Source: Candidatus Moraniibacteriota bacterium (lineage in GTDB: Bacteria; Patescibacteriota; Minisyncoccia; Moranbacterales; UBA2206). Taken from it: a stretch of 64,000 nucleotides of DNA. Numbering within the stretch: the first letter of the stretch is position 1; every line of letters starts with the position of its first letter. The position numbers and the translations under genes were made by a program. The notes beneath the pieces are model-generated. The model ran no database searches and was not told the DNA's origin. It saw only the letters and a program-made list of their open reading frames with translations. The stretch covers positions 13,665-77,664 of the forward strand of contig JBAQNM010000007.1 of assembly GCA_049303795.1 (NCBI GenBank), read 5' to 3'. Shown one piece after another: positions 10,950-62,247 of the stretch.

Positions 10950-12047
10950 TTATTTCTCTTTCAAGTTTATCACATTCTTTAAAATTTGTCTTGGTGTTGT
11001 GATGTTTGTGTTAGTTTGTTTCTGTGTGGTGGGAAGATTTTGATTAATATTTCGCGCCGAGGAAAGGATATTTTTTTCAGTTGAGAATGTTTGCGGTGAA
11101 GAAAAATGAATTCTACTTAGAGTAGGCTCTGTTGGTGTGCTTTCCAGTTTTTCTTTTTGTGGTAGGTCCTTGCGCCAAGCGCTGAGGCGATCGCTGTCAG
11201 ATTGAAAAGTGGCTGAATCATTTTTTGACACTTGAGCAGCTTCCAAATTAGTGTTGTATATGGTATTTGGGGTGGCTAGCGGTCTAGTTGCTCGTGGACG
11301 TTCCATTTGTTTTTCTAATACTGGTGGAAAGATGATCTGATAAATTTTATTGTTTATTGTGAGTAGGGTTTTTTCTTCGAAGGATTTTAGGATAAGAGCT
11401 AGTTTTTCCCGATCTTGGCTAGAAAGTTGTCGAGCATTCGCATTTTTGAATAAATAATTTCCCCGAACAATTGAATCGCGATTAGAAACACCAATATTAA
11501 AAGTGTAATCAGAGAGCCAATTTTTAATGGATGGTCGGACTAAATTAGGTGTGGTTGCAAGTTTAATTTGGTCAGAAGTGATTAATTGTTCAGCAATCTC
11601 AGGATATTTTTCCAGGGCATCTTCCAGTGACAATTTTTCTGTTTGAGCTTGGTAGGCTTTTTCTTGCGAGTCATCCCTGATTATTCTATTGAGAATTATT
11701 TGTGAAATTTCTTGGGCAATATCGGTGCTAATATTTATTTCTTTAGAGAAAATCAAAGGAAATTGTTCAAATTTAACTTCTCCAAAATAATAACCGCGAA
11801 TAGCTCTAGCGATAGTGGCTAGTTGGATGTAAGTTAGTCCGTATTTTTTTCCAATTTCTTGAATTTTTTCAGAAGACAGAAGTTTATCTTTAATTGGTTC
11901 TGGCAATAATAAAAACTTTCCTTGCCTTTCTTTTATATTTTCAACAGTTTCATCATCAGGATTTAGGGTTGTAAAAACAGCATAAGGGGTTACGCAGATA
12001 TATTTTTGCGCATCCGGTTTTAGTTTGGAAAATGGTATTTCTAACAT
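10950..12047 (-). CDS. Hypothetical protein, paralog A of a tandem pair
   Basis: 365-aa soluble ORF. It shares an N-terminal region (DPDDET..IKE+Q.KFL.LPE) and an internal block (NWLSDYTFNIG.SN..S..RG.YLFKN) with the adjacent ORF 12080..13435. Confidence 0.5.
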   Translation of the reverse strand: MLEIPFSKLKPDAQKYICVTPYAVFTTLNPDDETVENIKERQGKFLLLPEPIKDKLLSSEKIQEIGKKYGLTYIQLATIARAIRGYYFGEVKFEQFPLIFSKEINISTDIAQEISQIILNRIIRDDSQEKAYQAQTEKLSLEDALEKYPEIAEQLITSDQIKLATTPNLVRPSIKNWLSDYTFNIGVSNRDSIVRGNYLFKNANARQLSSQDREKLALILKSFEEKTLLTINNKIYQIIFPPVLEKQMERPRATRPLATPNTIYNTNLEAAQVSKNDSATFQSDSDRLSAWRKDLPQKEKLESTPTEPTLSRIHFSSPQTFSTEKNILSSARNINQNLPTTQKQTNTNITTPRQILKNVINLKEK

Positions 12048-12079
12048 AGTATAAATAATATTAGTTAATTTCGAGTGCT

Positions 12080-13435: not shown

Positions 13436-13450
13436 GACTTTTTTGACTTG

Positions 13451-15304
13451 TTACACAACTACACCCCCAGTGTTAGATCTTAAAGCGGCGGCATTGTTAG
13501 GGGTTAGTCTCTTTCGAACTTCATCTTTAGCTTGTCTTGGCATGCCATTCCAAGCGGTAATTGTGGCATTTATAATTCTAGCCCTTTCTGTGGTTTTCTT
13601 GTTGAATTCAGCTGTTTGTGCAGGTGTTGCACCTACTGGTAGTCCTGGTATGGGTTGTGTTATTGATGTCCAATCTTGATCATTCCATTTTTCAGCTGCA
13701 ATACTACCCATTTGTTGATTTGCAATGTATTGAGCTGTATCAATTGGTGCGTTGCCTGCAGCAACGGCTGCAGCACTAGCAGCGCTTGCGTTGGCTTGTG
13801 TTTGACGATTTCCAAGCTCATCTGGATCATTTGATTTATCAATTGCAACTAAATCATTTCTGCTTTGCTTAACCTTACTATTAATAGCTTTTCTAAGTTT
13901 TCCATCTTTATCTTCACCTTTAGCTTTAATTTTAGCTGTGAATGCAGAATAAGTAGCTTGATCCATGCTTTTATCTTCAGACAATCGATAAGCAGCAGCA
14001 GCATCTCCATTTGCAGCTCTTGATTTGAGTTCAACCTCTTCAAGTCCTTGCTTTTTATATTCCTCAGATTGTTTTTTCATGGCAGCCTCTTCAGCTCCCT
14101 TAACACCAAATTGTGCAGCCCTCCTCGCCGCTCTTGCATCAACATTTCTCTTTGAAATAGGACTATTATCACGCATTTGTTGCAACCTAGCTTGCACTCC
14201 ACCTGTAATTCCAGTTTGCTTTGAAACAAAACCAGCAGCGCCACCTAGTGGATTCTTTGCTAACCATTTTCCAGCTTTTATTCCACCATTCACAACCGCA
14301 TTGGCTCCAGCCAGACCAGATTTTTGCGCTTCAATAATTCCCAACCAAAGGACGATGACTGGCATTGAGAAAAAAGCTGCCTTCACAAGAAGATCTTGAA
14401 GAGGATTAGCAATTGTTGTTCCAGTTACTTGTGTTCCAGCTACGGTTTTTAATGTTCCAGATTGAAGGCTTATAACAGCAATCATTAATGAGTTAGCGAC
14501 AAAAAGCATAAATACCATAATTGGTCCGGAAAAACAATGCTTCATGAAGGTTGTCCACCATTCACTGCCGGAGCTGGCCAATTTTGTGCCAGGCAGAATT
14601 GAGCCAACAAAAGCAATCGGGGAAAACATAATATAGATTGCCAAAGTGACAGTTCTAATAACAAGCAGAACGGCTATAATAAGCAGTGTCATGCCAAAAA
14701 TGAAAGTAAAAATGATGGCAAAAAATAAAAAAACAAGTGATGGATCTTGGGTTGTTGAAAAGCTTGTTACCCCACTTCTATCAATAATAGAAACAAAGGA
14801 CGTGTTGCCTCCTAAGCCTTGCAAAAGACTGTACATGATAACATTAGAAACATCAACAATAAATCGCGCAATTGGGTAGCTGAAATTGACCAAGAGTGCC
14901 ATTATGATCAGATTTTGTAAAACTGCTTTATAGTTATATTTACTTACCTGGAAAACAGTGGCAAAAGCGGAAAAAAGCAAAACCATTATAAAAGCAATAT
15001 TAAAAACATCCCGAACTGCACGCCATGTTTCATAGACTGCGGCATTATTAATAATAGCTGTCATAACTTGAGGATCAACAATCCATTGAAAAATTACTTC
15101 AGCCATAGAAAGAAGGATTAAGACAGCATCTAGTATGAGCTGAAGAATTCCTTGTACAAGACCTTGTCCCCAAAAAGCGTTTGCTCCGTTAGAATAAAAA
15201 AAGACAAAAAATAAAACCAAAAAACCGACTGCCAGTAAGCTTTTTTTAGGATTATTTTTTTTGGTTAAGGCGACTTTTTGTTTTAATTTTGATAAAATTG
15301 ACAT
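13451..15304 (-). CDS. VirB6/TrbL-like polytopic membrane protein with a hydrophilic C-terminal tail
   Basis: 617 aa. It has an N-terminal signal/TM segment, multiple TM helices over about 350 aa, and then a charged C-terminal tail. Its position upstream of the PrgI-like and VirB4 ORFs matches Gram-positive T4SS organisation. Confidence 0.5.
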   Translation of the reverse strand: MSILSKLKQKVALTKKNNPKKSLLAVGFLVLFFVFFYSNGANAFWGQGLVQGILQLILDAVLILLSMAEVIFQWIVDPQVMTAIINNAAVYETWRAVRDVFNIAFIMVLLFSAFATVFQVSKYNYKAVLQNLIIMALLVNFSYPIARFIVDVSNVIMYSLLQGLGGNTSFVSIIDRSGVTSFSTTQDPSLVFLFFAIIFTFIFGMTLLIIAVLLVIRTVTLAIYIMFSPIAFVGSILPGTKLASSGSEWWTTFMKHCFSGPIMVFMLFVANSLMIAVISLQSGTLKTVAGTQVTGTTIANPLQDLLVKAAFFSMPVIVLWLGIIEAQKSGLAGANAVVNGGIKAGKWLAKNPLGGAAGFVSKQTGITGGVQARLQQMRDNSPISKRNVDARAARRAAQFGVKGAEEAAMKKQSEEYKKQGLEEVELKSRAANGDAAAAYRLSEDKSMDQATYSAFTAKIKAKGEDKDGKLRKAINSKVKQSRNDLVAIDKSNDPDELGNRQTQANASAASAAAVAAGNAPIDTAQYIANQQMGSIAAEKWNDQDWTSITQPIPGLPVGATPAQTAEFNKKTTERARIINATITAWNGMPRQAKDEVRKRLTPNNAAALRSNTGGVVV

Positions 15305-15410
15305 AATACTTTTTTAGGACCTAGATAAAATATAACTTGATAGAGTTGCCTCGTGTGATTATGCGTAGTAATTTTTAATTTGAAAATTTTTCCAGTAATG
15401 AATCTGATTT

Positions 15411-16226
15411 TTAATTAGTGATTTTTGTTAATACTTTTTCACTAGCTTTTCTGAGGGCTCTTGTTACAGCCATATTGACAACGGCAGCAGTCAACTCAAC
15501 TACGTTTGCAGCATTGATGATTGAATCGGTGTTGATATTTTCAAGACGAGACTGGCTTTCTTTATATAGGATTCCAGGTCTTCCATCTTTGCTATCATAT
15601 CCTTGATTAGCAATGGCCATTGCGGTTGAAGAATCCTTTTTGTTTTGGTAGTATTGTTCGCGTGCTTCACTGGCGCGCATTTTTACAGCTGCAGCATTAT
15701 TACCATCCAATACGAAACGATTCAATTCAGAAAGATTCCCCGCTGCTAGGATTTCATCAGGATTACCAGAATAGGTTGATTTCCATTGTGGAATACCGCT
15801 ATTATCAACATCCTTATCATCAATAGCAACTTCGTTACTGATAATTTCTTGCATCGCCTTTGCATAGTCGGTGTTTATTCCTCTGTAGGCGGTTTTAATG
15901 TAGGAATTGATAAATTTATCAGCTCTTTTTTCGGGGCCTTTGATGATGTAATCTTGCCAATCAGTGATTATTCTTGCTGAATTTTCAACCATACCCAACT
16001 GAGTTAATAATAAGATGGGAAGTTGTTTTTGCAGGCCCTGAACAATTCCTTTGACTGTATAGGAAAGCTCTTCCATGGCTTGTTTTTCTATTTCAGCAGC
16101 TAGTGCGTCCCATGCCTTGGCGGAGTTTGTTTTTATTGGTGAAAATGAAATTAGGCAAACAGCAAAAAAAACAAAAAATAATTTTTGAAGAGAAAAAAAG
16201 TTAGTTGATTTTTTTTTATTATTCAT
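15411..16226 (-). CDS. Secreted hypothetical protein
   Basis: 271-aa ORF with an N-terminal signal-like hydrophobic segment and no recognisable motif. Confidence 0.4.
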   Translation of the reverse strand: MNNKKKSTNFFSLQKLFFVFFAVCLISFSPIKTNSAKAWDALAAEIEKQAMEELSYTVKGIVQGLQKQLPILLLTQLGMVENSARIITDWQDYIIKGPEKRADKFINSYIKTAYRGINTDYAKAMQEIISNEVAIDDKDVDNSGIPQWKSTYSGNPDEILAAGNLSELNRFVLDGNNAAAVKMRASEAREQYYQNKKDSSTAMAIANQGYDSKDGRPGILYKESQSRLENINTDSIINAANVVELTAAVVNMAVTRALRKASEKVLTKITN

Positions 16227-29642: not shown

Positions 29643-30494
29643 TTATGAAGGAAATATTTCTTCTTTGTTATGCACCTCCCCAACCTCGCTCAGGAATTCT
29701 TTGATTATTTTTGGATCATTTTGAATTGGAGTGGAAATGTTCCAAAGTATATTAAATTGGTTTTTTAGTAGTTGACGAAGCTCTTTGCTTTCAACGATAA
29801 AACCAAAATTCTCGGCCTTGGAAGACATAAACATCACTTTATTGCCATAAGCCCAATATCCCATAGAAAATTCAACCCCAGCAGGGGCGATTCGCACTTC
29901 GCGTTTCACTTCCTTGCCCGGTGCCAAAAATATGTTTTTTTCTATATTTTCTGATTTATCCAGTGGCCAGACTACTTTTATATAGATATTGCTACGAATT
30001 CTTTTCTTATTTAGTTCATGTAAAAATTCTTCTCCAACCACTTTCATCACGTCTTTTACCGGCCAGCACAGTTCTGTTTCTAGATCATTATATAAAAGCA
30101 CATCTTTTAGCATTGTCTTTAATTCTTCTATTCCTTCAAAATAATGAAATTTTGGGCTAATAAAGTCTGTCTTTTGGGATGACTTTAGGCTTTCTAGGAC
30201 TGATTCAAAATCAGTTCGTGTGCTTTCCAGAGTGTTAATTTTTTCATTTATGATGGTCTTTATCGTTTCTGGGGCAACTGCTTGCCACATTTTCACTTTG
30301 TTTTTCTCGCTTTGTGATACTAGGCCGTGTTGGGCAAGGTTTTCGAGTAGTCCATAAAGGGTTGATCTGGGCATATTTAGACGTTTGGCGAGATTTCCCG
30401 TTGGTGAAATTCCGCTATCTAGCAGGGCTAGATATATATCAGAATGTTCTTTTTTTAAGCCAAATTTATCAAATATTCTGTATAACATAAGCAA
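29643..30494 (-). CDS. TrmB-like HTH transcriptional regulator, paralog 1 of 4
   Basis: N-terminal wHTH (EHSDIYLALLDSGISPTGNLAKRLNMPRSTLYGLLENLAQHGLV) plus a C-terminal domain of about 190 aa. It shares this architecture with ORFs 47261, 57953 and 61465. Confidence 0.6.
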   Translation of the reverse strand: MLMLYRIFDKFGLKKEHSDIYLALLDSGISPTGNLAKRLNMPRSTLYGLLENLAQHGLVSQSEKNKVKMWQAVAPETIKTIINEKINTLESTRTDFESVLESLKSSQKTDFISPKFHYFEGIEELKTMLKDVLLYNDLETELCWPVKDVMKVVGEEFLHELNKKRIRSNIYIKVVWPLDKSENIEKNIFLAPGKEVKREVRIAPAGVEFSMGYWAYGNKVMFMSSKAENFGFIVESKELRQLLKNQFNILWNISTPIQNDPKIIKEFLSEVGEVHNKEEIFPS

Positions 30495-35420: not shown

Positions 35421-36362
35421 ATGCAAATCAAGGAATTGAAGACACAATTTTTGGAATATATGGAGATTGAGAAGGGGCGTTCTCAAAAGACCATTGAAAA
35501 TTATGATCACTATTTGAATCGTTTTTTGGACTGGTCAAAAATAACAAAACCTTCAGAAATTACAGTCGAACTGGTTCGGAATTTTCGTGTCTATTTAAAT
35601 CGGTTTGAAAATGAAAAAGGTGAAAGATTGAAAAAGGTAACGCAAGGGTTTTATGTTATCGCTTTGCGTAGTTTTTTGAAATTTCTAGCAAAACGGGATA
35701 TTTCAGCTCTACAAGCGGAAAAAATTGAAATTGGCAAATCAAGTTCTCGTGAGGTGGAATTCCTAGAGGTTGATGAAGTGGAGAGAATCTTAAATGAAGC
35801 AAATGGAAAGGATATAAAAGCATTGCGTGACAGGGCTATTTTGGAGTTACTTTTCTCTGCTGGCCTGCGTGTTTCAGAACTTACTAATATTAATCGAGAG
35901 AAAATTGACTTGAAAACTCAAGAATTGAGTGTGCGAGGCAAGGGTGATAAGGTTCGCGTAGTGTTTATTTCTAATGAAGCATCTTTGGCGATTAAAGAAT
36001 ATCTAGATAAAAGAATGGATGTTGATCCGGCCCTTTTTGTGCGGGATGTTGCTGGTTTGGCTAAATTCGAAAAAAAAGGCTCCAATAAAGCTGTGGATAA
36101 CCTGAGGTTAACACCAAGATCAGTACAAAGAATCGTCAAATATTATGCAACTAAAGCGGGAATTGTGAAAGATGTCCATCCACATACTTTGCGTCATTCT
36201 TTTGCTACAGATTTGCTTATTAATGGAGCGGATATTCGCTCAGTACAAGCCATGCTTGGGCATTCTTCAATCACAACAACACAGGTTTATACACACGTAA
36301 CAAATAAACAACTCAGAGAGGTGCATCAAGCTTTTCATTCAAGGAGAAAAAAGACTAAATAA
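35421..36362 (+). CDS. Tyrosine site-specific recombinase, XerC/XerD family
   Basis: N-terminal SAM-like domain. The C-terminal catalytic motifs are LRHSFATDLLINGADIRSVQAMLGHSSITTTQVYTHV (R..H..R..Y). Confidence 0.88.
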   Translation: MQIKELKTQFLEYMEIEKGRSQKTIENYDHYLNRFLDWSKITKPSEITVELVRNFRVYLNRFENEKGERLKKVTQGFYVIALRSFLKFLAKRDISALQAEKIEIGKSSSREVEFLEVDEVERILNEANGKDIKALRDRAILELLFSAGLRVSELTNINREKIDLKTQELSVRGKGDKVRVVFISNEASLAIKEYLDKRMDVDPALFVRDVAGLAKFEKKGSNKAVDNLRLTPRSVQRIVKYYATKAGIVKDVHPHTLRHSFATDLLINGADIRSVQAMLGHSSITTTQVYTHVTNKQLREVHQAFHSRRKKTK

Positions 36363-43777: not shown

Positions 43778-45565
43778 ATGATTAAATCGATATTAAGGAA
43801 TATCTGGAATTCAATTCAAAAACAGCCATTAGATATCTGGTTTTTTTGTTTATTTTTATTGACTTTTACGCTTAGTGTGAGAAAAGTAGTGTTATACTTT
43901 CCCATAAAAGGAACTCTGAATGAATATGCCGGCATATATGTTTATATGTCCGATGTATTTCTTTTTTTGGCGATCTTCGCTTGGTCGCTGATTATATTAT
44001 GCAATAAAAGAAGACAGCTGTCAATAGACAGTACTAGTATCTATAGACTTATCCACAGGATGTTCAAGAAAAATAGCATGGAAGAATTAGATAATCAGGG
44101 GTTATCCACAGAAGAAAAAGGCTATTTTAAAGTATTAATTTGTAATTTTAATAAAATGTTCCACGTGGAACATTTTCGAAGAAGGTTTAATTTAAAATGT
44201 TCCACGTGGAACAATAGACAGGACATTGTAATATTTGCTATTCCCCTTTTCTTTCTTTTTTGGTCTTTTTTCTCTATGTATTGGTCTGAAAATAAAGTCA
44301 TTAGTCTTTATCGCTCGTTTAAATTTTTAGAGGCATATCTTTTATTTTTGTATGTAGCATTTAGAATTGTTCCACGTGGAACATTTTTAGATGATAACGA
44401 TGGTAATAAGGATATAGTTAAAAAAGTAATTCCTTATTTTAAAGCTATTTTATTTGGTCTTATATTTATCACGTTGTTTGATCATTATTTGTGGGATATT
44501 TGGCAAGGTCAGGTTTTATTTTGGATTGCTTGTGGTTTATTGGTCGGTTTTGAGTTTTGTACCAGGAATGGTAGTAATTTTTTAGTTTGTAAGGGATATA
44601 AGCAATCAAATGAAGATCAGGTTAGTGTGAAAACTAATAATGTTCCACGTGGAACATCTACTATTATGAAGTCTTTTTTTGTTATAATCATAGGGGTTGG
44701 TTTTATTCAAGCACTAATTGGTATTTTGCAATTTATTTTAACACATTCTATTGGACTTTTCTGGCTAAAAGAGAGTCAAATTAGTCCGCATATTGCTGGT
44801 GTTGCTAAGATAATTTTTAATGATGATGTTTTTATTCGTGCCTATGGCTTATTTCCACATCCAAACATATTAGGTGGATTTCTTGTTTTCTCAATAATAA
44901 TTACTACTTTATATTTAAAAATGTTCCACGTGGAACATTTGAACAATAAATTACTTAAAAAATGTTCCACGTGGAACATTTTAAACAAAAAAGAATTTAA
45001 TAATGTTCCACGTGGAACATTTAGTATTTTTATTGATCTGATAAAATTTAATTATTTAAATGTTATTTTAGTAGCTCAATTCGTTGCTATTTTATTGAGT
45101 TTTTCTAAGTCAGCCATACTAGCTTTGATTATTGCATTTTTATATATCTATGTTCCACGTGGAACATCTTCCGTGGGTATGTTAAGAAAAATGTTCCACG
45201 TGGAACATTTTAAATTAAAAATTTCAATCCTAGCCGTGTTTATTTCTGGTGTTGTTTTCTTGAGTCTTAATTATGAAGCATATTTAATTAAATCAACAAA
45301 GGAAAGGATGGATTACATCGCTATTTCTTGGCAAATAATATCAAGCAATCCAATTATAGGTGTTGGCACTGGACAATATATAATAAACGCTGAAATAATA
45401 AATCCAAATTTAGCTTATTGGCAATATCAGCCTGTGCATAATGTTTTTCTTTTTATTTGGAGTGAATTGGGGATTGTTGGATTGGTTTTGTTTATTTTAT
45501 TTTTGTGGAAACTATTTCATCTCAATGAGGTTGAGAATGTTCCACGTGGAACATTTAAGGAATAG
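43778..45565 (+). CDS. O-antigen ligase family (Wzy_C-like) polytopic membrane protein carrying ten in-frame palindromic-repeat insertions
   Basis: 595-aa continuous ORF. The C-terminal region (NPIIGVGTGQYIINAEI..QPVHNVFLFIWSELGIVGLVLFILF) is paralogous to the Wzy_C ORF at 1..617. The interspersed peptides MFHVEH, NVPRGT and CSTWN are the same DNA palindrome read in three frames. Confidence 0.55.
   Translation: MIKSILRNIWNSIQKQPLDIWFFCLFLLTFTLSVRKVVLYFPIKGTLNEYAGIYVYMSDVFLFLAIFAWSLIILCNKRRQLSIDSTSIYRLIHRMFKKNSMEELDNQGLSTEEKGYFKVLICNFNKMFHVEHFRRRFNLKCSTWNNRQDIVIFAIPLFFLFWSFFSMYWSENKVISLYRSFKFLEAYLLFLYVAFRIVPRGTFLDDNDGNKDIVKKVIPYFKAILFGLIFITLFDHYLWDIWQGQVLFWIACGLLVGFEFCTRNGSNFLVCKGYKQSNEDQVSVKTNNVPRGTSTIMKSFFVIIIGVGFIQALIGILQFILTHSIGLFWLKESQISPHIAGVAKIIFNDDVFIRAYGLFPHPNILGGFLVFSIIITTLYLKMFHVEHLNNKLLKKCSTWNILNKKEFNNVPRGTFSIFIDLIKFNYLNVILVAQFVAILLSFSKSAILALIIAFLYIYVPRGTSSVGMLRKMFHVEHFKLKISILAVFISGVVFLSLNYEAYLIKSTKERMDYIAISWQIISSNPIIGVGTGQYIINAEIINPNLAYWQYQPVHNVFLFIWSELGIVGLVLFILFLWKLFHLNEVENVPRGTFKE
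44166..45554. repeat. Cluster of 10 copies of the perfect palindrome (A)TGTTCCACGTGGAACA(T). Copies are at 44166, 44207, 44368, 44640, 44921, 44962, 45003, 45150, 45191 and 45537. Sub-arrays have an exact 41-bp period and unique 23-bp spacers.
   Basis: Read directly from the sequence. The core is a 16-bp perfect palindrome, extended to 22-24 bp (AAAATGTTCCACGTGGAACATTTT) in several copies. It contains no stop codon in any of six frames. It was not seen elsewhere in the window. Confidence 0.9.
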
Positions 45566-45695: not shown

Positions 45696-46100
45696 GTGGA
45701 AAAAGAACTATTTACAAAATCAATAATTAAAGAAAGAGAGCCTAATGAAAAAAGAATCTCAGTAATGTCAAGGCACACAAAAGAAGATGGCGTAACTCCC
45801 GATGAAAGAATAATAGAAAGAGTTACTTTTGATGAATGGCAAAAAGATTTCGCCCCTCCTGAAAAATTAGTCGGGGCTTATTATAGAAAGGAAATATTAT
45901 GGGAAGAATTTGAAAGAAAATATTTTGAATTTTTACGAAGTGACAAAATAAAACCAAAAGTTGAAGATTTTGCCAAGAGGTGTATTGAAGAAGTTATCAC
46001 ACTGATGTGTATTGAAGACACTGCTGATAAATGCCATCGTCGTCTGTTGGCCGAAGAATTACAAAGATACCAACCGCATTTAAAGATTATTCATAAATAA
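45696..46100 (+). CDS. DUF488 (YeaO-like) family protein
   Basis: 134 aa with the C-terminal DKCHRRLLAEEL motif characteristic of DUF488. Confidence 0.55.
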   Translation: MEKELFTKSIIKEREPNEKRISVMSRHTKEDGVTPDERIIERVTFDEWQKDFAPPEKLVGAYYRKEILWEEFERKYFEFLRSDKIKPKVEDFAKRCIEEVITLMCIEDTADKCHRRLLAEELQRYQPHLKIIHK

Positions 46101-46111: not shown

Positions 46112-46423
46112 ATGGAATTTAGAGAATTGCAAGAAAAAGTGGTTGCCAACGCTATGAGCTATGGCAAAAAATGTAACATTGAAATTGATGAGGATTTTGC
46201 ATTACTAAAATTATATGAAGAAGTGGGGGAGTTTGCTCAGGCAGTTTTAATTCATAGGAAAAAAAGTCGACCGGAAAAGCATATCTCAGAGGAACTTTCC
46301 AGAATAGAGCTAGGAAAAGAATTAGCAGATGTTGTTGGTATGGCAATTGTTAATGCGCATCTTTTTGGAATTGATTTGGAGGAGGCGATTGACAGGAAAT
46401 GGATTAATAGGTTGAAAAAATAA
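46112..46423 (+). CDS. MazG-like nucleoside triphosphate pyrophosphohydrolase (small all-alpha NTP-PPase)
   Basis: LYEEVGEFAQAVL plus ELADVVGMAIVNAHLFGIDLEEAIDRKW is the typical EExxE...D metal-binding pattern of the MazG/HisE fold. Confidence 0.65.
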   Translation: MEFRELQEKVVANAMSYGKKCNIEIDEDFALLKLYEEVGEFAQAVLIHRKKSRPEKHISEELSRIELGKELADVVGMAIVNAHLFGIDLEEAIDRKWINRLKK

Positions 46424-46792: not shown

Positions 46793-46898
46793 TTTAAGGT
46801 TAATAAGTCCCTGATGTATTAAATGTGAATATTGGTTAGTTTAAAACAGGCTAGCAAATAATTATGGTTTTGTCTAGTTTTTGTTTAGAAAAATTTTC

Positions 46899-47005
46899 TT
46901 ATAAAACGGTAGTAGAAGCCACCTTATCTCCGGCTTGTGGTTTCATCACGCGAACACCTTGATTTGCGCGACTGAGAGAGGTCTTTTTAGTGGAATGCAA
47001 ATGAT
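46899..47005 (-). repeat. Decayed duplicate of the gyrA 3' end (last ~35 codons plus the stop). It is the direct repeat partner of 51568..51675.
   Basis: About 80% nucleotide identity to the 3' end of gyrA, beginning exactly at the TAA stop. It would translate to ..[26 protein letters not shown], versus ..[26 protein letters not shown] for genuine GyrA. Confidence 0.8.
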
Positions 47006-47260
47006 TTAGAGGTGAAAAATAAATTGATCTCAGTATTATTAATAATATTAGTATTAACTATTTTTTTGGCTTTTAGGGGGTTAATAATTTTTAAAAATAA
47101 TTATACTATTTGACTAAGATATTAAAATAATCTAAAATGACGGCATAAGTCGTCGTTTTTTATTTGGCATAATTTTGCTTAATATAAAGTATTTTTAAGT
47201 TAGTCAATATAATAAATGACGAACTGTATTGATAAATTTAATTATTAAGAGTATAGTGCT

Positions 47261-48046
47261 ATGTTAAACGAAAACCAAAGAGCTAAAATAAAATCTGCTC
47301 TTTTACAATTAAATATGACAGAAAAAGAGATTGCTGTTTATATTTCAGTCCTGCAATTAGGGGAGTCTAGTATTCCAACTCTGTCCAAGGAAACCGGTTT
47401 TAGCCGGGGGACTGTCTACGATTTGGTAGAAAAGCTAAAAAACGGAGGATTTTTAGCGGAGATTAAAAAAGGCAAAAAAAGACGTTTCGTGCCGGAAAGT
47501 CCAACTAATAAATTATATAAAATTTTGGACGGAAAGCATGATCAACTTAAGAAAATGCAACACGAAGTCGATGAAGTTTTGCCAATTTTGCGTTCGATTA
47601 ATGCCAAAGAGGATTTCAAACCGCAAATACGAACCTATTTTGGAGAAAAAGGCTTTCGCCAAGTTTGGGATGAAATTTTTTCCTATGAAGGTAAAAATTT
47701 TTTGAGCATCGCGCGGATAGAAACATTCATTGCTTTTGCCGGAGAAGAATTTTTAGATGAAATTCTTTCTAGAAAAAAGAAGCTTGGATTTGTTAGTCGC
47801 GCAATCAACGAAGATTCACTTTTGGCTCAGAATATGCAAAACAAAGATACACAAGAAAACCGAGAGACACGACTCGTGCCAAAAGATTTTACATTCCCCT
47901 CAACAGAGATAATTTTCGGCGATAAAATTGCAATGTTCTCAACTGACAAAGAAAATATAATTCTTCTTGTTGAAAGCAAGGATTTCGCCGAAACTCATAG
48001 GGCATATTTTGAAATGATGTGGAAGTTTTTGGAAAAGTCCGTTTAA
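47261..48046 (+). CDS. TrmB-like HTH transcriptional regulator, paralog 2 of 4
   Basis: wHTH MTEKEIAVYISVLQLGESSIPTLSKETGFSRGTVYDLVEKLKNGGF plus a C-terminal domain of about 170 aa. Confidence 0.6.
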   Translation: MLNENQRAKIKSALLQLNMTEKEIAVYISVLQLGESSIPTLSKETGFSRGTVYDLVEKLKNGGFLAEIKKGKKRRFVPESPTNKLYKILDGKHDQLKKMQHEVDEVLPILRSINAKEDFKPQIRTYFGEKGFRQVWDEIFSYEGKNFLSIARIETFIAFAGEEFLDEILSRKKKLGFVSRAINEDSLLAQNMQNKDTQENRETRLVPKDFTFPSTEIIFGDKIAMFSTDKENIILLVESKDFAETHRAYFEMMWKFLEKSV

Positions 48047-48110: not shown

Positions 48111-48431
48111 ATGAGAAGATATAAAATAGCAGAAAGACCAGATAGGCTTTTGTTATCAAGTGCTCTCTTGCTAGATACTTTTGAAAAAAGAATTACTGCT
48201 ATCGTGAGAGTGGAATATGGTTGGTTTGATATCACAGTGTCTTTAATCAGGAGAAGTAATAAAAAATTAATTATTGAAGGATATCTGGTAGGTGGGTATG
48301 TCTATGGTAGTTATGATATAGACAGGGAAAAAGAATCCACCTACATCATAACAATTGAACCTTATCCCTGGGATGAATCTTCCGGCGAGCTTAAAGAGAA
48401 AAACAAATCTTATATCGAAATCGAAGACTAA
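48111..48431 (+). CDS. Hypothetical small protein
   Basis: 106-aa ORF inside the island. No motif. Confidence 0.35.
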   Translation: MRRYKIAERPDRLLLSSALLLDTFEKRITAIVRVEYGWFDITVSLIRRSNKKLIIEGYLVGGYVYGSYDIDREKESTYIITIEPYPWDESSGELKEKNKSYIEIED

Positions 48432-48452: not shown

Positions 48453-48875
48453 ATGAAAAAACTAATTAAAGTCTTGATTATTGATGAAGATCAGCGTCAA
48501 CTCGATAATTTATCTTTATTTCCTGGTTTGGAAATAAAAATAAATAGTTCTATGGAATATGGAATTAAAGAAAATTTTTCGAAATTTGATTTCATATTGA
48601 TAGGGCTGTCAAATAATTCTCTTAGTGGGTTAACGCTACTAAGAAGATTAAAAAAATTTAATTGGAGGTTTGCGCAAAAAAGACGAACTAAAAAGATAGT
48701 AATTATGAGTGAATTCGAAAAAATTGATTTCAACCTTGAGGAGTTTTATTGTCTGGTGGAAAGTTCGCTTTTTTGTTGGATGGAAAACTTTAAGTTTAAA
48801 GAAAACTACTATTTTTCTAAAGGCGACTTGAGAAAACCCTATAATGGAGTCTTGAGCTCCTTGCTTAAGTTATAA
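48453..48875 (+). CDS. Hypothetical protein, weakly receiver-domain-like
   Basis: 140 aa. KVLIIDEDQ...FDFILIGL resembles the start of a CheY-like receiver, but the motifs are incomplete. Confidence 0.3.
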   Translation: MKKLIKVLIIDEDQRQLDNLSLFPGLEIKINSSMEYGIKENFSKFDFILIGLSNNSLSGLTLLRRLKKFNWRFAQKRRTKKIVIMSEFEKIDFNLEEFYCLVESSLFCWMENFKFKENYYFSKGDLRKPYNGVLSSLLKL

Positions 48876-48885
48876 AGGAGAAAAA

Positions 48886-49101
48886 ATGAGCCAGAAAAAG
48901 ACAGAAGATTATCTTGAACTTTTAGAATTTCTTCTTCTGAAAATGGCTCATATTTCTATTGAGCCCGAAGAAGGAAGCCTCAGTCAAATTGTTGAAAGAT
49001 GTAAGAAATGTTCAGAGAAACTTAATCAAATCATTAATGCTCTTGAAGCATTAAATGGTTTTTCTTTTTTGCTTAACAAAAATATGGAGGTAGAAAAATG
49101 A
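48886..49101 (+). CDS. Small ORF (71 aa) translationally coupled (ATGA overlap) to the radical SAM gene. It is a candidate precursor or partner peptide.
   Basis: AT-rich ORF ending in ..NKNMEVEK. Its stop overlaps the ATG of ORF 49098. Confidence 0.3.
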   Translation: MSQKKTEDYLELLEFLLLKMAHISIEPEEGSLSQIVERCKKCSEKLNQIINALEALNGFSFLLNKNMEVEK

Positions 49102-50486
49102 AGGTATTAATTCTTGATCCGAGCTGGCCAGGAAAAAACGCAGTGTCTAGCGAAAAGATTGTCACTGCCTCAACGGGCGGTGCTCCCCAGCAAAATGAGG
49201 GCGCGATGTGCGTGGCTCAGGCAGCCCGCATGGCTGGTCATGAGGTGGAATATTTTCAGGCGCCGTATCACGGGTCGCCTGAAGATGTGCTGGCTAAAAT
49301 CGAAAACATTGCTGTGCTGGCATTATCACTGATGCAGTGGAACACACCTGTGGGGTTGCGATTTGCCCAAAAGGCGAAAGAGATCAATCCTATGGTAAAA
49401 GTGGCGGTGGGCGGCGTTTCACCTACATGCGTGCCCGAGCATTACTACAAAAATCCTTCAATCGATGCGGTGTTTGTCAGAGAGGGAGAAGAAATTTTTG
49501 TCAAATGGTTGAATGCGGGCATGCCCAGTGGAATTTTCAAAGCTAGTCGCGTAATCGACTGGGCAAAATATCAAGCGCCAGTTGATCAAACCATCCTCAA
49601 AAATCTGTATTTCCGAGGCCTGGCACCGGCTGGCAATGCGTGGGGATTCTATTTTACTCGAGGTTGTGCCGGTCGGTGTAAATTCTGTTGCACCCCGCAT
49701 GTTTTTCCAGGCGGAGAAATTGCAGATGATGTTTTAGGTGCTATTCGTCGGTTAATTCATCTTCGCGAACAGGGAGTTATGGGTGTGGACATCGCCAATG
49801 CCACTTTCAATGATAACCCTACTCTTGTAAGATATTTCTGCGAAAGCCTCATTTCGTCTGGGCTGAAGATGCCATGGACAGCTATGTGTGGCACGCACGG
49901 TGTCGACTTTGATATTTATTCATTAATGGCCAAGGCTGGCTGTTTCAAAGTTGGCTTCGGCATTGAAAATGCGACCCAACAAGGTCGCAAAAAGCTCGGT
50001 AAAAGAGGTTTTGCATCAGATAAATGTCATGACAGTGTTTATGCAGCACATGACGCCGGGTTACTTATCAGAGGATTTTTAATGATAGGTTCACTGGAGG
50101 ATGACGAGCAAACAATTGATTCTGTCAAAGAGTTATTAACAATGTTACCCATTGATGATCCGCGATTGGCGTTTATCACACCATTCGCCGGAACTACGTT
50201 CCACAAGCAGATGGTATATAGTGGACAAATCATCGACGATGATTGGAGTCATTATACTACCAATCGACCCGTCATTGGCACCGAAGATCGAGTCATGGAA
50301 CTTATAACTATGCAGCGGGAGATTATTCACTGGTTTTGGGCAGAGGGGCCTGGGCGATCGCAGATGATCAAACGTCTTTATAATGACCCTACAGCTTGGG
50401 TTTCGCGTTATCATCGATTTCTCACCAGAGACATAATTCCAAATGGATTTTTACGACCGGAAGAAGTTCCAAGTGAAATTTTGTAA
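49098..50486 (+). CDS. B12-binding-domain radical SAM enzyme
   Basis: N-terminal Rossmann-like cobalamin-binding-type region (KVLILDPSWPG...VAVGGVSPT). It is followed by the rSAM cluster motif GCAGRCKFCC (Cx3Cx2C) and a TIM-barrel-like core. The GC content is visibly higher than the surrounding genes. Confidence 0.8.
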   Translation: MKVLILDPSWPGKNAVSSEKIVTASTGGAPQQNEGAMCVAQAARMAGHEVEYFQAPYHGSPEDVLAKIENIAVLALSLMQWNTPVGLRFAQKAKEINPMVKVAVGGVSPTCVPEHYYKNPSIDAVFVREGEEIFVKWLNAGMPSGIFKASRVIDWAKYQAPVDQTILKNLYFRGLAPAGNAWGFYFTRGCAGRCKFCCTPHVFPGGEIADDVLGAIRRLIHLREQGVMGVDIANATFNDNPTLVRYFCESLISSGLKMPWTAMCGTHGVDFDIYSLMAKAGCFKVGFGIENATQQGRKKLGKRGFASDKCHDSVYAAHDAGLLIRGFLMIGSLEDDEQTIDSVKELLTMLPIDDPRLAFITPFAGTTFHKQMVYSGQIIDDDWSHYTTNRPVIGTEDRVMELITMQREIIHWFWAEGPGRSQMIKRLYNDPTAWVSRYHRFLTRDIIPNGFLRPEEVPSEIL

Positions 50487-50538
50487 GATTATTTTGAGAA
50501 AAATATAGTAGGCTATATATTTTAAAAGGAGACACGTC

Positions 50539-51480
50539 ATGAATGAAATTATCAGGCTTCATATTTTTCCTAGAGTAAGTTGGACATGGGACGAGTTTGT
50601 TGCAAAAACTCCTAAAAATTCAATTGCTTTGGACGGCATGGTCAAAGGAGGACCACGTTTTGACGAAGAAACAAGGCATATAAATTTTGACCATCACGAT
50701 GGAGTTATTCGTGAAGCCACTATGAGTACTGCTATGCAAGTTTTCATGGCAATAAAAGGCGGCTTAATGCAATCCTTTCGAGAAAACGGGCATCCTTCTG
50801 CTAATGTTTATATCAATGATACCGATCAAGATACAACATTAGCTGTTTGGCTATTAGGCAAATATCATCTTTTTGAAGGAACGCAAAGCTATCCATTAAT
50901 AAGCCGTTTGCTTTTTTTGGAAGACAAATGGGATATTACTGGAGGCGCCTTTCCAATTAGCCTAAGCGATAACCTTGTTTGCCAGCATGCCTGGATTTTC
51001 TATCCATATACATGCTTAAGAAAATCTGGGAAGTTAGCCAGTGCGGATGAAAATGTTCTCCGAGATAATATCGAAGCAAGCATAAAAAGGCTTGATGATT
51101 ATTTTATTGGAAAGGCAGGAGAAGAAGAAATAGATATACGGCACGAAATACTTTATGATTCTGCTAATTTTAAAATCATAAAAGAAATCGGCGGCGATGC
51201 CAGGCAATTTCTTTTTGGAAAAGGGCTGAATGCTTTTATAAGTCTTGTAACTGTTAGAGAAGATGGCCGATTCGTATGGAGCATTGGCAGGCGTTCAAAA
51301 TTCATACCTTTTCCTGTTCCACAACTATATATTGATTTTAATGAAGCGGAAGGTCTAACTGCTTTAAATGGCTGGGGCGGATCAGATATAGTGGGTGGTT
51401 CATCTCGGGAATTCGGCAGTAAGCTGATGTGGGAAAAACTTGCAGAAATTACCGAGAAGAGATTGAAAATAATTATGTAA
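50539..51480 (+). CDS. Hypothetical protein of intermediate GC content
   Basis: 313-aa ORF with no recognised motif. Last gene of the gyrA-flanked island. Confidence 0.45.
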   Translation: MNEIIRLHIFPRVSWTWDEFVAKTPKNSIALDGMVKGGPRFDEETRHINFDHHDGVIREATMSTAMQVFMAIKGGLMQSFRENGHPSANVYINDTDQDTTLAVWLLGKYHLFEGTQSYPLISRLLFLEDKWDITGGAFPISLSDNLVCQHAWIFYPYTCLRKSGKLASADENVLRDNIEASIKRLDDYFIGKAGEEEIDIRHEILYDSANFKIIKEIGGDARQFLFGKGLNAFISLVTVREDGRFVWSIGRRSKFIPFPVPQLYIDFNEAEGLTALNGWGGSDIVGGSSREFGSKLMWEKLAEITEKRLKIIM

Positions 51481-51552: not shown

Positions 51553-51567
51553 ATTTATTTAAGATTT

Positions 51568-54012
51568 TTATAAAACCGCAGTAGCAGCCACTTTATCTCC
51601 GGCTTGTGGCTTCATTACACGAACACCTTGAGTAGCGCGACCGAGAGAAGATATACTTTTCAAAGGAATGCGAATAATTTGACCTTTTTCAGAAGTAAGA
51701 ATCAGGTCAGCTTCCAGATTATCGATATTGATAATATTAGCACCAACTAATTTACCGGTTTTTGTAGTGATGGAAGCGGTTTTTATTCCGGAACCACCTC
51801 GCTTTTGGATTTTGTAATATTTAATATCAGATCTTTTTCCATAACCATTCTCAGTAATAACTAATAGTTGATTGCCTTTTTGTCCCTTAAAAAGGACATC
51901 CATTCCAACAACCAGGTCGTCTTTTTTTAGTTTTATACCGCGAACACCAGTAGCAGCGCGTCCCATTGAGCGAACATCGCTTTCCTTGAAGTGGATTGCT
52001 TGACCTTGTGAGGTCGATACAACTACTTCGTCTGTTCCAGTTGTTGCGCTAACCCAGCGGAGAGCATCACCCTTATCAAGTTTAATTGCAATAAGTCCGG
52101 AGCGTCTGACATTTTCAAATTCTTCCAGAGTAGTTTTTTTGACAGTTCCCATTTCAGTTGCCATGAAAAGATATTTATAACTATCATCTTTATTGAAGGC
52201 AATAATAGCAGTGACTTTTTCTTCTTGTGAAAGTTGTAGGAAGTTTACAATTGATTGTCCTTTGGAAATACGGGATGATTCAGGCAATTCGAAAGCTTTA
52301 GTTTGGAAAACTTTTCCGTTGTTAGTAAAGAATAAGAGATTATCATGGGTCATAACGCCGAGTAGTTTTTCAATTTCATCACCTTCTTTAGTTGATGCTC
52401 CAATTACACCTTTTCCTCCACGCTTCTGAACTTTATAAACAGTTGGGTTCATTCTTTTAATATAACCTTCTTTGGAAATAGTGATGATGGCTTCTTCGTC
52501 AGGAATCAAATCTTCTTGACGAAATTCTGTTAGGCCTGATTTAATGATTTTTGTGCGACGTTCATCACCAAACTTTTCTTTAACACGATTTAATTCGTCC
52601 TTGACGATAGCTAGAATTTTCTTTACGCTTTTTAGGATAGCTTCAAGTTCAGCGATTAATTTTAATTTTTCCGCTAGTTCGTCTTCAATTTTCTTTTGTT
52701 CGAGTCCGGCAAGGGTTTGCAATTTCATTTCCAAAATAGCGGTTGTTTGACGATCCGAGAGTTTGAATTTTTTCATCAAATTAACATGCGCTTCTTCTTT
52801 TGTTTTGGATTTTTTGATGGTTTCAATTACGGCGTCAATATAATCCAGCGCTTTTTTTAGACCTTCTAGGATATGAGCGCGATCCTGAGCTTTTTCAAGA
52901 TCAAAACGTGTTTTACGAGTGATCACTTCTTTTCTGTGAGCGATATAATATTCAAAAATTGCTTTTAAATTAAGCACGGTTGGCTCAATTCCATCAACCA
53001 ATGCTAGCATATTAACACCAAAATTCTTTTGAAGATCAGTTAATTCATATAGTTTATTGAGGACTTTTTGTGGATAAGCGTCTTTTTTAAGATCGATTAC
53101 AAGGCGAACTCCATCTTTATCAGATTCATCACGAATATCACGAATACCAACAATTTTTCCTTCTTTCACAAGGTCAGCCATTCTTTCAATCATGGTAGAT
53201 TTGTTGGTGGCATAGGTCATTTCAGTGACAATAATTTGAAAAGCGCCAGCTTTATTTTCATGAATGTCGGCTTTGGCGCGAGTTAGGATTTTTCCACGAC
53301 CAGTTTTATAGGCTTCAACAATATCTTTTTTATTATAAATAATTCCTCCAGTAGGAAAGTCTGGACCTTTTACGAATTCACATAGATCGTCAACTGTAGC
53401 ATCAGGATTGTCAATAAGATGACTAATACCTTCAATTAATTCAAATAAATTGTGTGGAGGAATATTAGTCGCCATACCAACGGCGATTCCCATTGATCCG
53501 TTGAGAAGTAGCTGAGGAAGATTAGATGGGAGAACAGTTGGTTCTTTATGCTGTCCATCAAAGTTGGGTACAAAATCGACAGTATTTTTTTCAATATCAG
53601 TGAGCATTTCTTCAGCAATACTAGAAAGTTTTGCTTCAGTATAACGATAAGCAGCTGCGCTGTCTCCGTCCATCGATCCAAAGTTTCCTTGACCTTTAAC
53701 TAGGGGATAGCGTAAGGAAAAGTCTTGAGCCATACGTACCATAGAGTCATAAACAGCTACATCTCCGTGGGGGTGATATTTTCCCAAAACCTCTCCAACT
53801 ACTGTGGCAGATTTTCGAAATTTGGCATTAGCACGCAGTCCTGTGTTCCACATCGAATAAAGAATACGGCGATGAACTGGTTTCATGCCATCACGCACAT
53901 CAGGAAGAGCACGCGCAACAATCACGCTCATGGCATAATCCAAATAGGATTGTTGAATTTCTTCAGTTATTTCACGGGGCTGAATATTTTCCAGCTCAAT
54001 TTTCATTTCCAT
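51568..54012 (-). CDS. gyrA: DNA gyrase subunit A
   Basis: The QRDR-region block [26 protein letters not shown], the active-site Tyr region AAAYRYTE, and C-terminal beta-pinwheel repeats. 814 aa. Confidence 0.95.
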
Positions 54013-57952: not shown

Positions 57953-58696
57953 ATGGAAATATTAGAGGAAAAATTAAAGCTTTTAGGGTTAAATGAAAAA
58001 GAAGCCATAATATATCGGGCGATATTACAAGGGAAAAAAGCAACAATCATAGATCTTGCCAAAGCGACAGGGACAAAGAGAACGACAGTTTATCATTGTT
58101 TAGATGCTTTAGTGGAAAAAAGTTTGGTGAATAGGGTCATGAAAGATGGGCATAAATATTATTATGCTGAAGATCCAGAGGAGAGTTTAAAATTAATACT
58201 CAAGGAAAAAGAGGATGTGATTAAGAAATTAATTCCTGATTTGAAATCTATATTCGGCACAAATCTTTATCAGCCGGAAATTGAGATATATAGAAATATA
58301 AATGGAATCCGAAAAATCTTAGAAGACATACTTAGTGTTAAAGAGTCAGTAGTTAGATATTACTTATCTGAATATAATGTGGAAGACATGGCTGGAGCGG
58401 ATTTTGTAGATGAATTTGTAAAAAAAAGAATTGCCTCAGGAGTGAAAAGCTTGGCGCTTCGATCATTTAAGTATAAGCCTGAAAGGGAGAAGATTTCAAC
58501 GCATGCTAAGCAGCTTCGAGAGGTGCGCTTCGTTCCGGAAAATATAATTATCAAACCATATATTTGTATTTATGATGATAAGGTGACAATGATTTCCACA
58601 AAAGAAGAAAAGCTGGGCTTTATAATTAAGTCGCATGAATTTGCCGAAGCACAAAAAGCGATTTTTGATATGATTTGGAATGGGGTGGCTATATAA
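57953..58696 (+). CDS. TrmB-like HTH transcriptional regulator, paralog 3 of 4
   Basis: wHTH LNEKEAIIYRAILQGKKATIIDLAKATGTKRTTVYHCLDALVEKSLV plus a C-terminal domain. Confidence 0.6.
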   Translation: MEILEEKLKLLGLNEKEAIIYRAILQGKKATIIDLAKATGTKRTTVYHCLDALVEKSLVNRVMKDGHKYYYAEDPEESLKLILKEKEDVIKKLIPDLKSIFGTNLYQPEIEIYRNINGIRKILEDILSVKESVVRYYLSEYNVEDMAGADFVDEFVKKRIASGVKSLALRSFKYKPEREKISTHAKQLREVRFVPENIIIKPYICIYDDKVTMISTKEEKLGFIIKSHEFAEAQKAIFDMIWNGVAI

Positions 58697-61464: not shown

Positions 61465-62247
61465 ATGGAAATTAAGGAAGTTTTGGAAAAATTTGGGCTA
61501 AAGGGGAGAAAAGCGGATGTTTATCTGGCGACTTTGGAATTGGGAAGTGCCAGCGTGATTGAAATAGCTAAAAAAGCCCAGATTAAAAGAACTACTTGCT
61601 ATAATGTGCTGTTGGATCTTATCGACGAAGGCTTGATTTCGCAGATAACCAAAGGGAAAAGAAAATTATTTATTGGTGAAGACCCAAAAAAAATAATGGA
61701 GGAAATAAAGAATAAAGAGAGACTATTTTCTGAAATTTTGCCTCAACTCCAGTCCATTCACAATATCAAGACGGGTAAGCCAAAAATGCGCTATTTTGAA
61801 GGAAAAGAAGGGATAAGAGAAGTGCGCGAAGACACATTAATGCATGGTGGAAAAGAAATATTAGCCATATATTCATATGATATTATAGATATTCTCGGCA
61901 AAGAATTTACGGATAATTATATTAAAAAAAGAATCCAAAAAGGATTTCATGTTAGAACAATTGCTCCGGATGATGATGAGATGATAAAAAATTACACAAC
62001 CAAGGATCAAGAACAATTGAGGAGCACAAAACTTATCAGTGCCAAGGATTTTCCTTTTTCAATCGAAATCCTTATTTATGGCAATAATTATGTGGCGCTA
62101 ATTTCCGCCAAGGAAGAAATAGGACTGATTATAGAAGGCTCAGAAATTCACAAAACCATGAAACTTATTTTCGAGCTGATTTGGAAGTTGTTACCGGAAA
62201 TAAAAGTGAAAGAAAGATATTTGTCAGTGAGCAAGGAGGAAAAATAG
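61465..62247 (+). CDS. TrmB-like HTH transcriptional regulator, paralog 4 of 4
   Basis: wHTH KGRKADVYLATLELGSASVIEIAKKAQIKRTTCYNVLLDLIDEGLI plus a C-terminal domain. Confidence 0.6.
   Translation: MEIKEVLEKFGLKGRKADVYLATLELGSASVIEIAKKAQIKRTTCYNVLLDLIDEGLISQITKGKRKLFIGEDPKKIMEEIKNKERLFSEILPQLQSIHNIKTGKPKMRYFEGKEGIREVREDTLMHGGKEILAIYSYDIIDILGKEFTDNYIKKRIQKGFHVRTIAPDDDEMIKNYTTKDQEQLRSTKLISAKDFPFSIEILIYGNNYVALISAKEEIGLIIEGSEIHKTMKLIFELIWKLLPEIKVKERYLSVSKEEK

Follow-up and report, generated by a model that had tools for sequence, protein, structure and literature searches.

A GC-rich, B12-type radical SAM gene in a Candidatus Moraniibacteriota genome belongs to a rare TrmB-linked family

Enzymes of the radical S-adenosylmethionine (SAM) superfamily use a [4Fe-4S] cluster to cleave SAM reductively to a 5'-deoxyadenosyl radical. 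Among the described enzymes with which the gene studied here can be compared, AprD4 acts on an aminoglycoside and is encoded in an actinomycete gene cluster together with a partner reductase. Others, such as the PoyC-type enzymes and the bottromycin methyltransferases, are B12-type radical SAM enzymes of ribosomally synthesized and post-translationally modified peptide (RiPP) pathways. We analyzed a 64,000-nucleotide stretch of DNA (the window) from a Candidatus Moraniibacteriota bacterium (assembly GCA_049303795.1, contig JBAQNM010000007.1), in which a GC-rich gene for a B12-type radical SAM enzyme, rSAM, lies directly behind a small open reading frame (ORF), o71, and downstream of a gene for a TrmB-family regulator. 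What this locus has in common with the B12-type RiPP loci is a small ORF that immediately precedes the radical SAM gene and is coupled to it. The overall interpretation that we prefer, and hold with middling confidence, is that rSAM encodes a constrained class-B-type enzyme of an unnamed family of candidate phyla radiation (CPR) bacteria partnered with TrmB, that the gene was swapped long ago and is no fresh import, that its substrate is non-ribosomal, and that o71 is an accessory.

The rSAM gene, its domains and signals, and o71 are arranged as follows. Related contigs are designated by L numbers and related proteins by P numbers.

49098..50486, + strand: rSAM, a radical SAM enzyme of 462 aa with a B12-binding-type Rossmann domain, a radical SAM barrel, and a C-terminal helical domain.
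49194..49502, + strand: B12-binding-type (Rossmann) domain, aa 33-135 (PF02310, E 8e-16; strand/helix alternation in the model); cobalamin binding is predicted only.
49665..49688, + strand: CxxxCxxC motif, C190/C194/C197, for the SAM-binding [4Fe-4S] cluster (48-sequence alignment).
50133..50483, + strand: C-terminal helical domain, aa 346-462, cysteine-free, with no SPASM/twitch cluster site (from the sequence; helices of the model at 367-446).
49081..49085, + strand: Shine-Dalgarno (SD) sequence GGAGG of rSAM, within the o71 coding sequence; kept in L002, whose o71 ORF is gone.
48886..49101, + strand: o71, an ORF of 71 aa, predicted to fold as a helical hairpin followed by a disordered tail; RCKKCSE is conserved in it, and its stop overlaps the rSAM start (homologue P0026).

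According to Pfam, residues 185 to 343 of the protein matched Radical_SAM (PF04055; E 3e-9). C190, C194, and C197 were invariant in the alignment of 48 relatives, and an extra cysteine, C198, was present in the subclade to which the window protein belongs. The Pfam matches and the invariant motif thus bear out the class-B-type layout, a cobalamin-binding-like domain plus a Cx3Cx2C core, that the original prediction had read from the DNA. The AlphaFold model, built with the 48-sequence alignment, had a pLDDT of 91.6 and displayed three domains. No cysteine was found after residue 310 (residues 311 to 462), and the protein therefore has no SPASM or twitch site.

A start of rSAM at 49098 is supported by both sequence and model. 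The N terminus, MKVLILDPSWPG, was conserved in the homologues, the first beta-strand at residues 2 to 7 was confidently modelled, and the GGAGG lies 8 nt upstream of the ATG. One NCBI record (426 aa) begins the protein at M37 (window region 49098-49205); this start is too late, because every homologue conserves the 36 N-terminal residues, which make up the first strand of the Rossmann domain. The TGA of o71 and the ATG of rSAM share positions 49098 to 49101, within GAAAAATGAAGG, exactly as the predicted ATGA overlap of the small ORF with the enzyme gene required. Because overlaps of four bases occur frequently in the compact window, the one between o71 and rSAM is unremarkable by itself. The rSAM gene is genuine, intact, and selectively maintained, with dN/dS values indicating purifying selection (0.075 vs L001, 0.108 vs L002, and 0.067 between L001 and L002).

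A word-indexed search of 5.8 billion protein clusters gave four close proteins, namely, the window protein itself, P0002 (85% identity), P0003 (81%), and P0004 (62%), the next being at 26% or less. A profile search of 1.84 billion representatives gave one at 999 bits, which is the 50%-identity representative of the rSAM family, followed by P0027 (247 bits), P0028 (237 bits), and P0030 (212 bits). Among the GTDB species representatives, the single rSAM protein retrieved nothing, and the family alignment retrieved only L014, labelled Patescibacteria group bacterium, the sole GTDB representative with a relative of rSAM. Nothing was found in the JGI metagenome contigs scanned with the family alignment and P0004, and the IMG/VR viral contigs had no match to rSAM or o71. 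Over the 5.8 billion clusters, the 1.84 billion representatives, GTDB, and IMG/VR, no homologue with more than 32% identity was detected beyond the subclade. In a neighbor-joining (NJ) tree of rSAM, the window clade was sister to the group of L014, P0028, P0027, and P0030, with P0053 in the next clade out. Judged from gene content only, L008, L009, L010, and L018 are probably of CPR origin. rSAM is a member of a small, rare, unnamed TrmB-linked family of the B12-type radical SAM superfamily, and a search of the literature on B12-type radical SAM enzymes, TrmB, or RiPPs in CPR, Patescibacteria, or Moranbacteria found nothing specific. The contig of P0004 carries two B12-type radical SAM genes in tandem, 15 nt apart, the upstream one encoding 432 aa.

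Much larger proteins also matched the rSAM profile. P0029, P0031, P0036, P0040, P0047, and P0051 have 1500-2330 aa with three to five tandem B12-binding/radical SAM modules, and these giants matched as strongly as the single-domain relatives (up to 216 bits).

The regulator upstream of rSAM in the window has the following position.

47261..48046, + strand: TrmB-family winged-helix regulator, 261 aa (PF01978, E 5e-11), GC 0.359, of native composition.

This protein matched the N-terminal half of Pyrococcus TrmB (PDB 3QPH). Its orthologues (61-85% identity) were found directly upstream of rSAM, on the same strand and with gaps of 27-36 bp, in L001, L009 (where the rSAM protein is P0028), and L014. 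A second TrmB orthogroup (57% identity, two members) is divergent to P0027 in L008 and to P0053 in L018. An adjacent TrmB was missing only at L010 (P0030), and the neighbors other than TrmB varied between the rSAM loci. Gene order in five lineages, with two orthogroups and two orientations, argues for TrmB being a recurrent partner of the rSAM family, the two forming a putative regulator-target pair.

Next, the base composition was examined. In 300-nt windows, GC rose from 0.317 (48800-49099) to 0.517 (49100-49399) and fell to 0.387 by 50300-50599, which agrees with the abrupt change at about 49100 reported in the original prediction. The kilobase from 49 to 50 kb had the highest GC of all 64 (0.468 vs a window mean of 0.350). 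Two details given with that prediction were not reproduced. The background is not about 30% but 35% over the window, with local values of 29-33%, and the tract does not reach about 51480, since o313, the gene beyond the rSAM stop (50539-51480), had a host-typical GC3 (0.292 vs 0.293 expected for the host). The GC-rich tract is the rSAM ORF alone and stops at its stop codon at about 50.49 kb. The ORF (49098-50486) had a GC of 0.467 and a GC3 of 0.432 and ranked first for both among the 58 window ORFs (z 3.7 and 3.5). From its own amino acids and the host codon usage, a GC3 of only 0.304 was expected (z 6.4), so that amino acid content is not the cause of the excess. The codons in excess were mainly G-ending (CTG, GCG, GTG, CAG, GAG, and TCG), and the coding score of rSAM was low under the host model.

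In L001, the GC-rich tract was seen to run on to about 4500, and a 55-codon ORF at 4177-4344 of that contig, directly 3' of the L001 rSAM gene (GC 0.52, GC3 0.57), has no counterpart in the window.

To place the gene in time, the window was compared with L001, for which dS was 1.47 for rSAM and 1.49 for TrmB; the dN/dS of TrmB was 0.064, next to the 0.075 given above for rSAM. Because the dS of rSAM equals that of TrmB, rSAM is an old resident and no recent arrival. The loci showed that rSAM was already beside TrmB before the lineages of the window, L001, L002, and L003 split. Over larger distances, the identities of the two proteins were discordant between the window and L009 (TrmB 63%, rSAM 30%), between the window and L014 (62% and 32%), and between L008 and L018 (57% and 32%), and they were concordant between L009 and L014 (62% and 52%). 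The GC of rSAM was 0.480 in L014 (flanks 0.32-0.39), 0.523 in L008 (flanks about 0.40), and 0.496 in L018 (flanks 0.32-0.39); it was 0.43 in L009 (flank 0.45) and 0.51 in L010 (flank 0.52). The discordance, together with a GC excess recurring in AT-rich hosts, suggests old exchange rather than simple vertical descent. The rSAM gene was thus probably swapped at deep timescales at a TrmB-anchored locus, either by lateral replacement among CPR lineages of differing GC or by differential loss of ancient tandem paralogues. The persistence of the GC excess is accounted for by neither exchange nor paralogue sorting and is unexplained. No donor lineage was found in the collections searched, in which the nearest relatives were TrmB-linked genes.

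We next consider o71. This is a real lineage-specific gene with native codon usage (codon score 0.276 vs 0.258 +/- 0.065 for host genes). Its sole diverged homologue, P0026 (74 aa, 72% identity), is located on L003 with the same ATGA overlap, and o71 is therefore present in two of the four subclade lineages, those of the window and L003. The dN/dS was 0.26, based on 17 differences at 40 synonymous sites and 25 at 173 non-synonymous sites. The AF2 model was of modest confidence (pLDDT 68) and had helices at residues 2-25 and 32-57 followed by a disordered tail of 14 residues. In L001, only 35 bp separate TrmB from rSAM; the 1.05 kb found there in the window, with o71 and two further small ORFs, o106 and o140, is missing. 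In L002, about 65 nt of the o71 3' end remain, without an ORF and retaining the SD of rSAM. No o71-like ORF was found beside P0004, where the upstream gene is another B12-type radical SAM gene, and the sister-group loci had no small ORF at this place. A tree made from 53 N-terminal rSAM residues had the order (P0004,(L003,(L001,(window,L002)))), which implies that the common ancestor of L003 and the window clade had o71 and that two losses followed. Since the enzyme stayed intact through both losses, o71 is dispensable, and it is more likely an accessory or modulator than an obligate substrate.

As for the reaction, analogy with the superfamily suggests that the enzyme would cleave SAM to a 5'-deoxyadenosyl radical, which would abstract a hydrogen from the substrate. 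If cobalamin is bound, the substrate would then be methylated; if the enzyme is AprD4-like and cobalamin-free, the substrate would be rearranged or dehydrated. Expression of rSAM would be set by TrmB, and o71 would be translated together with the enzyme. The substrate is most likely non-ribosomal, such as a small molecule, a sugar, or an envelope precursor. Hints at envelope or sugar chemistry came from a Wzy_C gene upstream in the window, L001, and L014, from GT1 and VanW in L014, from PAP2, BacA, GT4, and YkuD in L008, and from the fold match to AprD4. That the enzyme is of B12 type, as had been predicted, holds for its domain layout; its use of cobalamin is unproven, since AprD4, the closest fold, has the same B12-type domain yet binds no cobalamin (PMC12931638).

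Different origins of the GC step have to be weighed against an old exchange. An assembly chimera at the transition, for which the abruptness of the step is the sole argument, has practically no chance of being the explanation: the junction at 49.0-49.2 kb was 100% identical in four further assemblies (L004-L007, from GCA_049286985.1 and three separate SRA runs), the same junction was found in diverged relatives assembled elsewhere (nucleotide identity to the window of 78% for L001 and 82% for L002), the GC step fell at the same gene border in L001, L002, L008, L014, and L018, and neither the reading frame nor the SD-ATG geometry is disrupted. The identity of the four assemblies disposes of the concern about a misassembly that had been raised with the prediction. 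A recent acquisition of rSAM, alone or along with o71, from a GC-rich non-CPR donor would agree with the sharp step at the start codon, the GC3 z of 6.4, and the low coding score under the host model. However, it is very unlikely, given a dS from the L001 orthologue equal to that of the native TrmB, the position of the gene at the same locus in four diverged lineages, the lack of any non-subclade homologue exceeding 32% identity in the 1.84 billion representatives, GTDB, and IMG/VR, the native composition of o71, and the absence of mobility genes and repeats at either edge of the GC tract (49.1 and 50.5 kb). The gene had been called clearly horizontally acquired; its composition does look foreign, but a recent import is disfavored by a dS like that of TrmB and by the lack of a nameable donor. 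The opposite explanation is that rSAM was never transferred: it would have been inherited vertically, its GC would be intrinsic to the gene (owing to selection on codons or mRNA or to biased gene conversion), and ancient tandem paralogues, differentially lost, would account for the 30% identity to sister genes. This is unlikely as well, though less so. The same GC excess occurs in TrmB-linked relatives on three other AT-rich contigs (L008, L014, and L018) and persists despite a dS of about 1.5; polarised third positions showed no AT-ward drift, with 40 GC>AT vs 49 AT>GC changes, in a weak test with a saturated outgroup and a parsimony that favors AT>GC; two B12-type genes stand in tandem on the P0004 contig; and the nearest relatives are all at TrmB-linked loci, L014 being labelled Patescibacteria and the rest unlabelled. 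On the other hand, the enrichment of G-ending codons looks more like the mutational imprint of a GC-richer genome than like selection on translation, the relatives in GC-richer hosts (L009 and L010) are compositionally at home, as donors would be, the corresponding locus of L015 lacks rSAM, and we know of no mechanism that keeps one gene GC-rich.

The nature of the substrate has its own competing explanation, in which o71 is a RiPP-like precursor or substrate, with the helical N-terminal part as leader and the floppy C-terminal tail as core, and is methylated or otherwise modified by the B12-type enzyme. The purifying selection on o71, the ATGA coupling kept in the diverged L003, and the model of two helices with a disordered 14-residue tail, in which the indel variation falls, are consistent with it. 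So is the confinement of o71 to a subfamily strongly diverged from its sisters, which would fit a change of substrate, and a protein-modifying B12-type radical SAM enzyme, MgmA, was the second-best fold match. This explanation is nevertheless quite unlikely. Both the L001 and L002 enzymes are intact (dN/dS 0.067) with o71 absent or reduced to the remnant without an ORF, and neither P0004 nor the sister group has such an ORF. No RiPP recognition element (RRE) or PqqD-like element was matched by Pfam or NCBIfam in rSAM, o71, o106, o140, or o313, and no leader peptidase or exporter was found in the cluster, where the neighbors are TrmB, three small ORFs, o313, and gyrA. The SPASM/twitch site, also lacking, is typical of many peptide-modifying radical SAM enzymes but not obligatory for B12-type ones. 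The model of ApyD, a RiPP B12-type radical SAM enzyme (NF050148), scored 32.7 against a cut-off of 750. Therefore, of the RiPP layout proposed in the original prediction, the adjacency of a small peptide gene to a B12-type radical SAM gene stands, and the reading as a RiPP locus is weak, as o71 is not co-conserved and RRE, SPASM, peptidase, and transporter are all lacking. There is a slim chance that the subclade enzyme changed its substrate and modifies, or obligatorily works with, o71, which would make a minimal two-gene peptide- or protein-modification system, the GC richness then reflecting repeated cassette-like exchange at a regulator-anchored locus.

Several points weigh against the preferred interpretation of an anciently exchanged, TrmB-partnered enzyme with a non-ribosomal substrate. 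The NJ tree of rSAM is rough and has no support values. The window has three confirmed TrmB paralogues (47261-48046, 57953-58696, and 61465-62247) and possibly a fourth at about 29736-30467 (- strand; a weak tblastn match only). Because such paralogues are frequent, some of the TrmB-rSAM adjacency could be due to chance or inherited synteny. In the Moranbacteria contig L015, the orthologous TrmB, a 134-aa ORF, and o313 are present with no rSAM between them. About 0.75 synonymous substitutions per site in each lineage have not erased the GC excess, an outcome that simple transfer plus amelioration does not predict. The idea of an envelope or sugar substrate is circumstantial, resting only on neighbors and the AprD4 fold match, and MgmA, the second-best match, acts on a protein, so that a peptide substrate is conceivable. 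The search for a cobalamin riboswitch was negative, as Rfam, by gathering score and by E-value, gave only four tRNAs in the window and no leader near the locus. No cobalamin gene was present among the 47 window ORFs scanned against Pfam, mostly the longer ones out of 58 of at least 90 aa. Finally, the contigs of the relatives are short, and a copy of o71 could lie elsewhere in the L001 or L002 genome.

The remaining features around rSAM are given below.

48111..48431, + strand: o106, a small ORF between TrmB and rSAM, with no Pfam, NCBIfam, or PADLOC match and a native-like coding score of 0.233; absent in L001.
48453..48875, + strand: o140, an AT-rich small ORF (GC 0.291), putatively coding, with no family match; absent in L001, L002, and L003.
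50539..51480, + strand: o313, the downstream neighbor, a native core Parcubacteria protein with more than 300 clusters at 57-71% identity.
46896..47085, - strand: a decayed orphan copy of the 3' end of gyrA (87% identity over 84 nt, extending to about 190 nt if gaps are allowed).

The coding score of o140 was 0.069, under that of every training gene. By eye, o140 gave the impression of a degenerate receiver domain, and this was dropped as no hidden Markov model (HMM) supported it. The small ORFs gave only noise against Pfam at E-values up to 10 (for example, HisKA with E 0.075 for o71), as did o71 and o313 against the PDB by sequence, and PADLOC defence models had no match for rSAM, o71, o106, o140, or o313. 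A scan for promoters and terminators gave no signal over the shuffled expectation. o313, which is not downstream of rSAM in L001, lacks Pfam domains, and comparison of its sequence with the PDB yielded no relative. Its family records include named Moranbacteria and Wolfebacteria, and one source labels it "abortive infection protein." The invariant residues D32, D51-H52-H53, and N93-D94-x-D96-Q97-D98 were noted in this family, and the sequence suggests a metal-dependent, perhaps DHH-like, hydrolase. Two TrmB genes each were also seen within 10-17 kb in L008, L014, and L015; among regulators, the TrmB family is heavily expanded in these genomes.

Located 180-280 nt ahead of TrmB, the orphan copy comprises the last approximately 30 codons of gyrA with the stop codon kept. 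The copy and the genuine gyrA end (51565-51760) are direct repeats, and the block enclosed by them contains TrmB, o106, o140, o71, rSAM, and o313. The possibility that these repeats mark an island carrying rSAM was rejected as an explanation of the GC tract, because two native genes within the block, TrmB and o313, are syntenic in L001, L014, and L015. For the same reason, the att-like gyrA repeat more probably records a recent rearrangement.

Further upstream, a perfect 18-nt palindrome, ATGTTCCACGTGGAACAT, had 10 copies (at most 2 mismatches; 0 expected in shuffles) between 44156 and 45554. All copies lie inside a Wzy_C-type membrane-protein ORF (43778-45565), often exactly 41 nt apart, and are read in three frames of this one ORF (as MFHVEH, CSTWN, and VPRGTF). 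The core of the palindrome was also found in the L001 orthologue (756-771 and 1147-1162) and at the ends of Moranbacteria contigs (L015, 1-16 and 56-71; L016, 40-55). It looks like a DNA-level repeat element residing in a gene. A DUF488 gene of the active N3a subclade (45696-46100) adjoins a gene for a MazG-like pyrophosphohydrolase (46112-46423). The DUF488 product matched PDC-M45C, a candidate defence family of PADLOC (E 2.6e-14), and the pair is missing from the corresponding place in L001. Elsewhere in the window, a long run of large ORFs without a Pfam match on the - strand (614-16226) surrounds a TraG/VirB4-type P-loop ATPase (7974-9818), which suggests a secretion- or conjugation-like cluster, and a tyrosine recombinase is located at 35421-36362.

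The genomes of CPR/Patescibacteria are very small, and little secondary or cofactor chemistry is known from these bacteria. A gene for a B12-type radical SAM enzyme kept by purifying selection beside TrmB in several lineages points to an undescribed radical reaction, and, if cobalamin is used, it would imply a need to scavenge it. For composition-based island calling, the locus is a caution, since a sharp GC step need not mean recent transfer, and it raises the question of how a single gene stays GC-rich when its genome is AT-rich. For RiPP mining, a small ORF coupled to a B12-type radical SAM gene is insufficient evidence without co-conservation.

Lastly, rSAM was compared with named B12-type radical SAM enzymes, including TIGR04072, HpnJ, BchE, MgmA, PhpK, AprD4, ApyD, HpnR, and BzaD. 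None of the NCBIfam equivalog cut-offs was reached, and the 13 matches obtained were all 5- to 40-fold under the cut-off. The top score was that of the ladderane-lipid B12/radical SAM model TIGR04072 (62 bits vs a cut-off of 360), followed by HpnJ (TIGR03471; 58 bits vs 578), and nothing of the lipid-pathway context of these two enzymes is found at the rSAM locus. The closest fold was that of AprD4, the radical SAM 1,2-diol dehydratase of apramycin biosynthesis (PDB 6FD2), at 14-15% identity; its model, NF033070, scored 34 against a cut-off of 500, and nothing of the AprD4 gene cluster is present at the locus. The second-best fold was that of MgmA/QCMT, the methyl-coenzyme M reductase (MCR) glutamine C-methyltransferase (PDB 9CCB), at 17-18% identity, with 42.9 for TIGR04014 against a cut-off of 360. 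Its substrate, MCR, is a methanogen protein, and no MCR was found among the 47 ORFs scanned. The characterized class B structures of TsrM, TokK, CysS, and OxsB were at 12-15% identity, but these proteins have 530-730 aa with extra C-terminal domains, and none of their NCBIfam models was reached. From the B12-type RiPP loci, with which it shares the coupled upstream ORF, the window locus differs in having no RRE, protease, transporter, or further tailoring gene and in a small ORF that is not co-conserved with the enzyme.

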